A stretch of DNA of 63,852 nt, the filler included, from Bigelowiella natans CCMP2755 (taxonomy: Eukaryota > Protista > Cercozoa), in assembly GCA_000320545.1 (NCBI GenBank). It is 4 parts of 4 records of this genome, joined end to end, with 100 filler letters (N's around TTAATTAATTAA, not from the genome) between each part and the next. Parts side by side here need not be neighbours in the genome. Positions count along the whole stretch, not along the records: positions 1 to 26,036 come from ADNK01000409.1; positions 26,137 to 39,815 come from ADNK01003581.1; positions 39,916 to 62,690 come from ADNK01003101.1; 1 more part is not named here. One strand, written 5' to 3'. How positions within the stretch are numbered: the first letter of the stretch is position 1; the number at the start of each line of letters is the position of its first letter. Both the position numbers and the translations under genes were made by a program. Shown here piece by piece: positions 4,377 to 61,858 of the stretch. Under the pieces are notes generated by a model, which worked only from the letters and a program-made list of their open reading frames with translations, was not told the origin of the DNA and searched no databases.

Positions 4377-5465
4377 CTGCACCCAAATTTCAGAAGAACT
4401 TCGTACGTGTTGCTTGCTGATGCATCATCATGCCATTATGTTGAATTCAGCGAGAATGATGATCGATTGAGAGGATGTAATGATTAGCACGTCATAATCA
4501 TCCAGACATAAGCATCTGCCAGCTCGATCAAATTACAATTTATGTAGTAGTAGTAGTAGTAGTAGTAGTAGTTGTGGTAGGTTTACAATAGCAGAAAATA
4601 CAAAAAAGAGGTGAAGCTCTATGTACAAATCTAGTAATCCCATGGATATATTTATATCTCTTGGAGACGACATGCACATTGGTACAACATTCTAGCATGT
4701 AAGTAGGCTAGATATCGGTGCATTGCAGCCAGTGTTCATTCAACACAACTACGCACAGCATACTGGTTTATCATTGCTTGACGACCAATACAAGTTAGGT
4801 GTGAAATGCAATCATAGCTAGATAGGGAATGCGCATCGCACGCGTACACCATGCCTTGGCTTGCTATGAAGCATATTCTAGCATTGCTAGATTGCCAATT
4901 CACAATGCACATCTTGTAGATGTGCATAGAATGCTTCGTTGTGATGTGAATTATCTATAACGTCATGTGCGCATGTTCGTGCTAACGCAGCAATTCTAGA
5001 ATTCAAAAATGCATTATTTGGCTGCTGCTATGTAGCTAGATATAGTGTCAGTGGTCGAAGATGTATAGAAATGGATGTCATCTATTCATGCTAGCATGCT
5101 GAGAACTAGCCAGACATAGGATTGCTGAGCATCTCAGATTTAAACCATGCAAGCCTGCTAGCATGCTATCATGACATGGCCACATAGACATGCACAACGG
5201 CGCAATCAATTGCTAGATTGGTGCCTTTGTCGACGTAGCGTGCAGAGGCTCGGCGCACATGAATGGCGATAGAGAATGTTTCCCATTCTTTCACAAAATA
5301 ATTACATTGCACGCACAACGTTAGAACTAGCTGCGTGCATTCTATCGTAAACAATTAAGCTTGTTTAACATTATCTCTGGTCTACAGACGCTTGAAGGTG
5401 CCATCAGAAAATGATAAGGTATACGGACGAATGCAATCTTCGTGTGTGAGCAAGACTTCGAAATT

Positions 5466-7236
5466 TTAACTGGATTTGTGTAAATCAACCTTGCCATTTT
5501 TCTTCTGCGACACCCGAAACCACGCAACTTCTAAAATTGCACACATTTGATTCCCTACTTCAACGGCGTACGTAAGGTATAACATAAAGGTGCAGACAAC
5601 GGCACCCCAACAGCCAAGGGATGTCATATAGAACGATTTGAGTAAACGTTGCTGGCCCATGCCTACCGAAATTATAATTAACATCCCAACCCCCCCGCAG
5701 TACTCAAAAGGGGATCGTGGGAGCTTCATTTGAGCTGTTCTTGTGACAAGAATGCGGTTCATCAACCCTCCAAATCCTAGCATGCTCACCATAACCCACG
5801 CGACCACTTGGCCCGTCCCAAATGGACGAATTACGAGATATGCTACGACCGAAACAATATACCAGTAAATGATTAATGCTGCTTGGTGAAAGAAGCCAGC
5901 GATTCCCGAGCCCTCTTTAATGGATTCCTTTTCGGGCGTCGTTAAATTCCCTCTCAGAGGGGATTTCGAGCAATAATGCTTGATGATGGTAAACCCGGTA
6001 GCGAGCGCATGGTGGGCTGGCAGCAGGAGTCCCAAAACGATAAACAATCCTCGGAACTGCCAAGAAGTAGACGTGATCGACCCAGCGGGGAACATGGGAA
6101 CTATGCGCTTGAAAGCCGAAGAGCTCTCGAGAATGCGTGCTAGGAAAGCGGGTAACGGTATTTGTCGCTCTAGAGATTTTGAGGAGTAAGCCTTGACAAG
6201 ACCGCACACCTACACATAATCTTGTTAGTTACATCGCAACTGTCAACGAAAGGGTGATGGGCAACTTTACTTGGATGAGCGCTTGCATTTCCTGGCAGTC
6301 TAGAGGACGAATTTCTTGCCGACCTGAACATTGGTTGTGATAGTAGTCGAAGTTAGAAGGTATATTTTATTCGCGTGGCAGCTGCTGAGCACAGAACATG
6401 AATGATAGCAACCGAAATGTAGCAGAGTCAGATTCGAGAAGAAGAACGCCAGCTGGGCATGAAGTACGAATAATGCACCGACGATGGAATTGAGTCCGAC
6501 CCCAAGGATTTCTGTGGATTAGGGATTCGAATGGCACACTGATATGAGATTGATTGTGAATGAAATAACTCTTCCCCCGCTTTGGGGTTTATTAGTACCT
6601 ACCACTGCAAAATACAGCATAGATTGTTGAAGTCATTGCATCGCAGCCATGGTCGATAACTTCACCCAATGCACTTCCACATTTTAGCCTACGAGCCTAA
6701 TAGCACAATTCGACAAAGTATGCTGATGAGGGTGTTCGCATTCGCTGTACGGTTTTGTTCTCAATCTCTTTGCAATGTACTACCTGTTTCCCATCCGTGC
6801 CGTCCATTGTCTGGTACACAAAGCCGCACGCCGATGCCATTACCAACCACCAAATCGGCGCTCTAAGGAAAGAAATAATCATGTGTTAGGAATGCAGAAT
6901 GGAGATCTAACTCCTCTGTACTCACTTTCCATCAAAATGTGGGCTGACAACGATGAGCGCAACGAAGGCTGAGCAGAGAAAGCCGAAGCCAATCAGAGTA
7001 ATGAGGTTAGGAGCCAGCCAGCGTGGATATAGAGGAGTCACCTATCAACAGACGCATTCAGAACTTGATGTAACATACACGATTAATTGGCGGACCAGAT
7101 CCCAGAAGCGGTTGAGGTAGAGGTATTCGAGCAGGCTGAGGGGGGGGCTTTGATACCGGTAGGATTTCAAAGCCACAGCGTCAACGACATTGCGTGCAGA
7201 TGACGACGCAGAGCGACCGCTTGAGATTCCGCTCAT
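5466..7236 (-). CDS. Choline/ethanolamine phosphotransferase (CDP-alcohol phosphatidyltransferase family), multi-exon
   Basis: N-terminus LKSYRYQSPPLSLLEYLYLNRFWD, WLAPNLIT exon, catalytic motif YQTMDGTDGKQ...DHGCD split by introns, and a long hydrophobic last exon at 5466-6209. Confidence 0.9.
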
Positions 7237-8051
7237 TATAAACTGGTGGAGTCCCCCGTCTCCCCTCCGTACTTATCTGCTTCTGTCGGATCTGGCGGAG
7301 AGGGTTGTGTGCTTGTAGCGCAAAAAGCATGTCGTCCTCGTCGTTGTCGTTGTCGTCGTCGTTGTTGTCGTTGTTGTCGTCGTCGTCGTGGTCGTGCATG
7401 TCTCACCTTCAAAACGACATACACTTTTTGTCCCAGAATGGCGTTTTGCGTTTAATGTTGTATTTGTTATGACTACCGCCGATTTTAGACTATAATATAT
7501 GGGTGATATTACCAAAGGCGCTCTCACTTCCGGCGGAGGCAAAATGGGGAACGGCCGATCCACGATCTGTTGATGGAGGATGGAGATCATGGTTTTCGAG
7601 CCACAGCTTTCTGTTAATCCTGCACTCACCACTAATTTTATCTGGTGGATTGTACTCTTTATTCTTTTCCATCTTCTTCTTCTATTTAAGAGCCTGACTT
7701 GGAGTCAGGGCAGGATAGAGAAACCGAGCAAGACTACAAATTGAACGAGAGCACGGTAGAATAACTCCATAACCGTTTTACTAAATGAATAATAATCCAT
7801 GATAACAACTCTTACAGAGATCCCTCTCAACACTCTCTACAAGCTTGTCAGACTTATTGCTCTCTCCTCTTTCCCCGAAGGGTATGGTTGACACGTCAGA
7901 AAAAACACAGATCTTCCGTCAACAAACACGCGTGCTGTGTGAGTCTCGGAAGCTTTCATCTTCTTATGCTAAAGTTGCTTCCGGATATTCTAGATTTCGT
8001 AAAAATATGCTTAAAATTGATAGTACTAAACATGCGGACGTTGGGTAATAG

Positions 8052-60690: not shown

Positions 60691-61213
60691 TCCGAACTTC
60701 TCCAGTTCTGTGGGTTGGGGTTTCAACATTGGAATCAATGCACATCGTTTCTCGTTCATTCATTCACTCGTTTGGTCAGATGATCGACGCAGGTGCACAT
60801 GCTGGCATGGCAAGTGATGTGTTCCAACTCCATGCAACACCGGACTCGCTAGCTCGTCACACGCGATGTCTGCTAGCCTGTGCTCACGTGTCTGAACACG
60901 TGAGTTTCAGATCGATTTCAGCTTGTCACACGCACGCACTTCGTCCATCATCACGTGCGCGTGCGCTGCAAGCAGCAAGCGCTGGGCCGGGGCGTTGCAC
61001 GCACGCCATGCAACATCCAGGCAATGGAAAACGCTTGAAACAATCAGCTGTCCTGTGTTTTGGTCATGTCCGGATGTTTGGGGGGGGCGCATGCCCCGTC
61101 GCGCGCTTTGCCTTCCCATTTTGGCGCACTTTGTTCGCTGTCTGCAAAAATGGGGGCTGCTGATCCGGCTCAACTCCAAGGCCACAAGGCGATTGTGACG
61201 CTCACTTCAGAGC
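60236..61213. other. TpA-free domain (only CTAG retained)
   Basis: Manual scan found 4 TA in 978 bp, all CTAG. Confidence 0.92.
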
Positions 61214-61858
61214 TAAATGAGGGGTTCAGAATCTTGCAGCAATCAGATCTGAAATTGAACGAACTTGCTTGAACATGAACAACTGATTGCTAACAAAAGC
61301 ATGATGAAAAGCCATGATGAAAAGCTGCGCTAGCATGGTGCGCTTGAAATCGCCTAAATTCGAAACTTATCCAGGCGGCAAACACCCTGTTTTAGGTTCA
61401 ATAGTTCAGAAATCTTGCTTCAGCCAGATCCAAAATTGAATGAAGCAGCTGCGGAACAACGGATTGCTAAAATGACTTGATGAGAGCTGCATGCGGAAGA
61501 AAACTTGCCAAAATTATTGCCACATAGCATGCGCGCCTTTGAGCTGGTTGTGGTGCACATGCGCACGCAAATGCAGCGCATTGCAGGCACACCACTCGGT
61601 CATTGTAGCAGCTAGCTACAATCGCAATCGTTGTACCACCCCCGTGCATACTAGTTGGTGTCATATGTTCTTATTACGACTGAGGCAAAGGGGTCGCCGC
61701 CAGCATTGTGTATCAACTACAATATTTTACATCTTAGCGATAAACTATGCATGAGGTAGTGAATGAGCAACTACAGCAACTATTGGAAAATTATGAGTAG
61801 CTATAAAATGAAAATTTTAATTAAAGTCCACGTGCTCATTGTCTTGTCCTTATTGTTC

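Follow-up and report, generated by a model that had tools for sequence, protein, structure and literature searches.

The question raised by a 63,852-nucleotide (nt) stretch of DNA from the cercozoan Bigelowiella natans CCMP2755 (four joined parts of assembly GCA_000320545.1, hereafter the window) is what removes the dinucleotide TpA, or TA, from the spacers behind its genes. An earlier note on this DNA had listed nine TA-depleted domains (D1–D9), in which TA survives as CTAG, CTA or TAG, and had related them to termination or untranscribed DNA, by loose analogy with base J. Here we report that flank-dependent survival of TA (lowest with neither a 5′ C nor a 3′ G, higher with one such flank and highest in CTAG), and not bulk depletion, is the feature common to the nine domains. 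The TA loss and CA/TG gain in these 3′ spacers are probably the accumulated footprint, on host DNA, of the TpA→CpA/TpG mutator of B. natans. Mutation of TA to CA/TG in this species is already known; for the flank rule, for the excess of CTAG, for the orientation-dependent position behind 3′ ends and for the spread into the host gene ARH3, we found no prior description in the main text of the preprint reporting the mutator (bioRxiv 10.64898/2026.01.13.699255) or in the literature searched.

Flank-dependent survival of TA

TA was scored as a share of pyrimidine–purine (YR) steps, thereby removing base-composition effects, in three classes: TA without a 5′ C or 3′ G, with one such flank, and with both (CTAG). 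The CTA, TAG and CTAG classes had been set by the earlier reader ahead of the flank test. Because cores delimited by composition are circular, the nine spacers were redrawn from stop and start codons only. In these codon-defined spacers, TA accounted for 408/2637, 249/982 and 106/208 of the steps with no, one and both flanks (0.155/0.254/0.51; odds ratio (OR) 2.32, P = 1e-23), and the rule reached P < 0.05 in eight of the nine spacers taken singly, the exception being S6 (P = 0.095). By contrast, the shares were flat in six divergent spacers (101/454, 52/219 and 6/31, or 0.22/0.24/0.19; OR 1.06), none of which was individually significant, and in 15 gene bodies (1705/6644, 900/3184 and 82/314, or 0.26/0.28/0.26; OR 1.13), where the three significant cases probably reflect (TAG)n/(CTA)n repeat remnants. 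The flank effect differed between codon-defined 3′ spacers and divergent spacers (interaction P = 1e-4). Within the domains as originally listed, the survivors noted earlier were borne out in eight of nine (D6, P = 0.12), and the pooled shares rose from 0.147 through 0.347 to 0.69 in the five weak domains and from 0.014 through 0.045 to 0.42 in the four strong cores described below.

CTAG in 3′ spacers is enriched beyond mere sparing. Against densities of 2.0 per kb in genes and 1.9 in divergent spacers, it reaches 7.7 in 3′ spacers, with single-spacer values of 4.0–13.7 per kb in the nine 3′ spacers versus 0–4.2 in the six divergent ones (P = 0.001). CTAG constitutes 26% of the YYRR tetramers (two pyrimidines followed by two purines) of weak domains but 4% of those of genes, and the commonest hexamer around it is GCTAGC. 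Since only 7/111 spacer CTAGs are directly tandem, slippage is insufficient to explain the excess. We looked to the ChlorV preprint for a methyltransferase, host or viral, acting on CTAG; its text lacks 'CTAG' and names the motifs CANNNNNNTG, RCGY and TGCA; the main text of the methylome papers checked does not mention Bigelowiella.

Bulk TA depletion in individual domains

Depletion of TA outside CTAG is strong in four of the nine domains, with observed/expected (o/e) ratios of 0.12 (D2), 0.33 (D5), 0.16 (D8) and 0.12 (D9), but the other five (D1 0.72, D3 0.72, D4 0.60, D6 0.97 and D7 1.11) are no poorer in TA than the divergent spacers (H1 0.63, H2 0.76, H3 0.66 and H4 0.46; window 0.82), so that the depletion originally described for all nine holds for four. 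The gain of CA+TG is shared by all nine (rho 1.37–1.78, versus 0.98–1.16 in divergent spacers). The longest stretches free of non-CTAG TA span 980, 560 and 388 bp, whereas 30 simulations under each of two Markov models gave maxima of 195 and 257 bp.

Three of the strong cores, whose limits were set by composition, occupy tandem spacers. D2 (9900–11045) lies between an FHA gene and ARH3, both on the plus strand, and retains TA at 6/249 YR steps outside C..G flanks (9940–11045); D8 (56217–56900) lies between the 3′ end of G14 and the 5′ end of RPS13, and D9 (60234–61600), which contains the 980-bp stretch, between the 3′ end of RPB10 and the start of G14, all on the minus strand. D5 (35050–35990) sits midway along the longest of the convergent spacers (2.36 kb), between a second FHA gene (+) and an RCC1 gene (−). 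The weak domains are all convergent: D1 (4740–5340; TA share 0.10/0.44/0.83 for no, one and both flanks), D3 (12230–13300, ARH3 (+) and IFT81 (−); 0.12/0.30/0.71), D4 (23800–24300, a cNMP-binding gene (+) and an eIF2D-like gene (−); 0.07/0.33/0.71), D6 (43500–44000), the weakest and not significant alone (0.24/0.32/0.62), and D7 (53880–54900, G12 (+) and RPS13 (−); 0.18/0.36/0.62), which contains many scrambled YR runs.

Among the divergent spacers, H1 (18800–19600) served as a negative control with no CTAG and no flank rule, and the rule is equally absent from 7335–7500, 29540–29900, 41000–41850, 49230–49750 and 62800–63300. The claim that such spacers keep ordinary TA breaks down at 49230–49750 (rho TA 0.44), although its CA+TG is not raised (0.98) and it lacks the CTAG rule. 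Low TA near 5′ ends (rho 0.28–0.5 at 49230–49780, 41780–42150 and 19200–19600), again without CA/TG gain or the CTAG rule, is a separate, promoter-type effect.

Position relative to gene ends

When 14 gene ends are pooled, no signal is seen upstream of the stop codon or in the first 200 bp behind it; it sets in beyond that point. This onset agrees with the earlier placement of the domains no more than several hundred bp from a stop codon, but the tandem cores reach as far as 1.2–1.7 kb behind it and adjoin or overlap the start of the next gene: D9 ends 65 bp from the start of G14 (~60169, a position backed by the shorter relative P0127, 182 aa) and D8 roughly 130–270 bp from RPS13. Strong cores occur in 3/3 tandem but 1/6 convergent spacers (P = 0.048). 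At 400–800 bp from the stop, unflanked TA survives at 5/205 steps in tandem spacers, compared with 117/719 in convergent ones (sites within a spacer not being independent), indicating that two converging terminators leave a weaker footprint. Thus, a tie to DNA beyond 3′ ends stands within the window, where the process is absent from divergent promoters and gene bodies, but the view that it marks termination suits the pattern poorly, since the deepest cores adjoin a downstream start in all tandem spacers and occur in a single convergent one. 'Untranscribed DNA' presumably suits the pattern better, and the 3′ spacers are presumably transcriptionally silent.

The depletion is not confined to spacers. 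In D2, it extends 233 bp into the coding sequence of ARH3, a conserved ADP-ribosylglycohydrolase encoded by a single open reading frame (ORF; 10813–12204 (+), Pfam/homologue anchor; full open frame 10684–12204). Its nearest named relatives are those of Lotharella oceanica (57% identity) and Amorphochlora amoebiformis (48%), with which the N-terminal part aligns from ~10873. Codons 1–77 contain no TA, whereas the codon use of the gene itself predicts 9.0, and none of 20,000 resamples was as low; counted from the second ATG, the expectation is 6.6 (P = 0.00025; 0.0035 after scanning). TA loss has spread from the spacer into a conserved host coding 5′ end. ARH3 gave no match in a metagenome scan. 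The gene is intronless among intron-rich neighbours and is flanked by a strong (D2) and a weak (D3) domain.

Alternating repeats follow the same division. All 21 runs of (TA)5+ in the window lie in genes and none in spacers, whereas (YR)5+ runs containing both CA and TG make up 45/57 of such runs in spacers and 49/121 in genes (P = 2e-6). This division is what editing of (TA)n tracts within spacers would be expected to leave. The intronic (TA)n runs (for example, at 2883, 27764, 45205 and 58132) are nearly all 26–46 bp long and often adjoin (CA)n/(TG)n, which suggests partial conversion or compound birth.

Probable action of a TpA mutator on host DNA

In 15 B. natans lines, 231/302 nuclear point mutations fell within two regions of integrated virus; 230/231 of these were A→G/T→C, all at TpA, at a TpA→CpA/TpG rate ~1000-fold above background in integrated nucleocytoplasmic large DNA virus (NCLDV) and virophage sequence (bioRxiv 10.64898/2026.01.13.699255). 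The same study found the larger hypermutated region transcriptionally silent, described 124 TpA-poor/CpA+TpG-rich clusters of at least 3 kb, and proposed an ADAT2-like deaminase as a candidate only. The words 'CTAG', 'context', 'flanking' and 'termination' are absent from its main text; its supplementary tables of mutations (S2) and clusters (S10) may bear on the rule or the loci. The window comes from the same host species, as the exons of gene model jgi/Bigna1/82606 (G14), to which a search with the exon at 59400–59672 led, match it, five of them at 100%, identifying it as B. natans nuclear DNA. The preprint's genome-wide cut-offs (rho TA ≤0.43, rho CA+TG ≥1.52) are passed by 2/63 fixed 1-kb windows (starting at 10001 and 35001) and by sliding windows in D2, D5 and D9; D8 (680 bp) has values of 0.33 and 1.78, and the five weak domains fail the TpA cut-off.

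We simulated TA editing on an AT-biased background and scored the outcome on a 136-class tetramer spectrum. Editing reproduced the strong cores (r = 0.82–0.90 in the best-tuned set and 0.72–0.89 in the first), including their CC/GG deficit, whereas simulations without editing or with CpG decay gave r = −0.13 to −0.02; CpG decay or AT-biased drift alone did not reproduce the spectrum. An equilibrium fit put the editing rate at x0.22 for a 5′ C, x0.24 for a 3′ G and x1.95 for a 3′ C, with weak domains edited ~10-fold less than strong ones, numbers that are tentative because an unusually strong C→T return rate was needed. Models with a single protection fitted worse (Akaike information criterion (AIC) 5482 for the 5′ C only, 5440 for the 3′ G only and 5384 for CTAG only) than protection by both flanks (5344), which improved to 5292 with a TAC preference. 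R-loop editing of the non-template strand, which predicts TG>CA on the sense strand of the upstream gene, was rejected, as no such skew is present (TG:CA 301:315 in tandem and 819:860 in convergent spacers).

These observations would be accounted for if the activity that hits integrated viruses had also made the host domains, probably by adenine deamination, on both strands, of presumably untranscribed DNA. Editing would be ~4–5-fold slower per flanking 5′ C or 3′ G and ~2-fold faster before C, as the fit suggests. DNA that no polymerase crosses, in tandem spacers and midway along the longest convergent one, would be the most exposed; convergent spacers subject to read-through would take an intermediate place, genes and divergent promoters would escape exposure altogether, and (TA)n microsatellites arising in 3′ spacers would become mixed CA/TG/CG/TA runs. 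By a rough estimate, weak spacers would acquire <1 such mutation genome-wide over 3,132 generations, so that their absence from the accumulation lines is not contradictory.

Several points weigh against attributing the domains to this mutator. The preprint found hypermutation confined to viral regions, with an AT-biased spectrum elsewhere, and the cited model enzyme, amphioxus ADAT2, favours GAA and TCG as well as hairpin loops, not TA, in passages of PMC10354150. In weak domains, editing gives r = 0.76–0.83, versus 0.58–0.66 from the purine/pyrimidine skeleton alone, and their surplus of alternation (0.59–0.65 versus 0.49) cannot be produced by transitions and requires slippage or another non-transition source. 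CTAG o/e is 1.9 in strong and 3.0 in weak domains, whereas simulations yielded at most 0.75 with protection only and 1.1–1.2 with an added C→T step. As no transition model tried attains this level, CTAG must be gained or kept by something else, and a further force besides the mutator would be needed, which could be selection, binding or methylation of the site, or its renewed formation from CCAG/CTGG. Silence alone does not explain why tandem promoters are affected and divergent ones spared. The statistics come from one window with 15 spacers.

Alternative explanations

The same mutator could have been aimed at foreign DNA, the cores being decayed transposon or viral relics, edited or TA-poor on arrival, with leakage like that of repeat-induced point mutation (RIP), and positioned merely where insertions are tolerated. 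D5 does contain a 418-bp element (35123–35540; TA 3/108) resembling a miniature inverted-repeat transposable element (MITE): it is short, non-coding, without a Pfam match, and bounded by perfect 17-nt terminal inverted repeats, two matches of which arose in 0/100 shuffles. Of its three TAs, two (35142 and 35519) lie in the extended arms of the inverted repeat. The CA and TG at its outer ends may belong to the arms or may derive, by editing, from a TA target duplication. No second copy was found in the window, in metagenome contigs (both arms searched) or in viral contigs, where one match over 17–22 nt only was taken as chance; D2, D8 and D9 lack inverted ends of this kind. D9 contains at its edge (61224–61520) a diverged ~180-bp tandem duplication; at one aligned position the copies differ as TG and CA, which a common ancestral TA would explain. 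Spreading would suit cores that are sharp and fade at their edges, and DDE endonuclease and reverse transcriptase domains are enriched among TpA-poor gene models (bioRxiv 10.64898/2026.01.13.699255). We nevertheless consider a relic origin unlikely, though by no means negligible. The single TA-poor repeat family that the earlier note had named as a possible explanation was not seen: apart from the MITE-like element in one core, the nine spacers share nothing beyond 21–27-bp matches in a raw self-BLAST within the window (a self-BLAST after YR-step collapse was swamped by low complexity). Core ORFs that were scanned gave no Pfam match below E 0.001, a 184-aa ORF in D9 had no match among 1.8 billion proteins, another D9 frame matched only the local gene model, there was no phage match, and an Rfam scan returned 0 matches. 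Moreover, D5 is equally TA-poor beyond the element (3/98 on its right), and the CTAG excess is found in all nine 3′ spacers.

It is improbable that the domains record a modified thymine of TET/JBP origin, either 5-hydroxymethyluracil (5hmU) or a base-J-like mark, that miscodes T→C at TpA behind genes and would make the analogy with base J mechanistic. Since A→G and T→C at the self-complementary TpA are one event on opposite strands with identical products, the sequence is compatible with it, and a symmetric mark suits the lack of strand skew; moreover, passages of PMC11572971 describe 5hmU in Crypthecodinium cohnii as favouring TA and TC, and base J is found at Trypanosoma brucei termination sites (PMC4721952). 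Yet depletion is weaker where two genes terminate, and TC/GA is kept in strong cores (rho 0.97). Base J is not known to be mutagenic. A case for selection in place of mutation, in which regulatory spacers favour CTAG/GCTAGC and CATG/TGCA and disfavour TA (for example, through nucleosome positioning or avoidance of TA-targeting transposons), seems to us very improbable as a general account. The share of CTAG among weak-domain tetramers exceeds the neutral transition models tried, GCTAGC is its commonest setting, and selection may still account for the CTAG excess, though for that feature only; but near-total TA loss over 0.4–1 kb, synonymous ARH3 sites included, together with CA/TG gain, is the kind of outcome that the measured mutator yields, and no longer motif is common to the domains.

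Among known systems, the viral hypermutation of B. natans itself is closest, with the same species, the same dinucleotide lost, the same products gained and several windows within its cut-offs; the targets here differ in being 0.5–1.4-kb host spacers, shorter than the 3-kb minimum for clusters and for the most part lacking hallmarks of foreign DNA, and the preprint main text makes no link to gene orientation or to a conserved host gene. Fungal RIP generates TpA through C→T change and requires duplicated sequence. The domains resemble its products as dinucleotide-specific transition hypermutation with domain-wide scars and leakage into neighbours, but the direction is opposite, with TpA lost and CpA/TpG gained in place of C→T change, and there are no duplicates among the domains within the window. 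Enzymes of the TadA/ADAT type act A→G on DNA, and passages of PMC13225742 describe untargeted TadA8e as mutating TA genome-wide, its off-targets favouring that step; the ADAR hotspot given in passages of PMC10661471, UAG, is by contrast a context spared here. Base J and 5hmU of kinetoplastids and dinoflagellates resemble the domains in their location past gene ends and, for 5hmU, in a possible TA preference, but they act as epigenetic marks and sit at polycistronic ends or at repeats (PMC4721952, PMC11572971). The genes here are monocistronic-like, convergent ends form the weaker class rather than the strongest, and the pattern is a mutational footprint, not evidence of a mark; in position, the analogy does not hold.

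Gene map and other features of the window

The gene map was built from Pfam matches, homologues and six-frame reading, with most 3′ ends placed by eye; the Pfam scan covered 346 ORF pieces of at least ~48 aa among 494 listed, plus 15 re-scans. It yields 6 convergent, 3 tandem and 6 divergent spacers, and the frames with their Pfam/homologue anchors confirm the orientations given earlier (D1 and D3–D7 convergent; D2, D8 and D9 tandem). Four genes were placed by reading frame only, without a domain anchor: G1 (ending ~4488, +, with a weak sub-threshold match on the opposite strand), G2 (5466–7330, −), G10 (41850–43160, +) and G12 (49750–53580, +). The orientation of D1, D6 and one side of D7 is less secure for this reason. 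The remaining genes are the FHA gene upstream of ARH3 (ending ~9456, +), IFT81 (~14070, −), the cNMP-binding gene (~23046, +), the eIF2D-like gene (24600–29533, −), the second FHA gene upstream of D5 (~34680, +), the RCC1 gene (~37040, −), a beta-lactamase-like gene (~44700–49230, −), RPS13 (55200–~56000, −), G14 (57106–60169, −, homologue anchor), RPB10 (~61960, −) and, after it, a dymeclin gene (+).

The region 37040–41000 contains RCC1 repeats (37045–38000) and a weak Fer2-like match (40127–40312) on the same strand and may be two genes, which would mean one additional tandem junction; it also includes a recent tandem duplication (40656–40885, period ~135 bp, few differences) within the RCC1-side gene region. 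The gaps between parts (26037–26136, 39816–39915 and 62691–62790) contain, amid runs of N, one and the same AT filler of 12 bases, which is an artefact and no part of TA biology.

Implications

Spacers free of TA attract false exons because TAA and TAG stops are missing. The ab initio model Bigna1/82606 places its first exons inside D9 (60152–60686), although the relative P0127 starts at ~60169, and these exons are probably false; such exons may inflate lists of TpA-poor 'genes'.

The published mutator lacks an established targeting rule or enzyme, and the window offers both a sequence rule and a positional rule. Any candidate enzyme would have to reproduce the survival order CTAG >> CTA/TAG > other TA, with TAC favoured for editing. 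By the positional rule, the footprint lies behind 3′ ends, peaks in tandem spacers and is missing from divergent ones, which distinguishes 'editing of silent DNA' from 'anti-foreign immunity'. It is a tentative possibility, one we would not yet call likely, that a constitutive, low-level A-to-G editor acts on B. natans' own silent DNA behind every gene end rather than on foreign sequence, having altered roughly one fifth of the gene-dense chromosome arms, erased (TA)n there and leaked into coding 5′ ends, with CTAG spared as a marked or bound site. If so, it would be their silence that exposes integrated viruses to editing, CTAG would serve as a self mark or as a 3′-boundary element, and the proposed 'immune' editing of viruses would be one face of a general, inverse-RIP mutator that shapes the genome.

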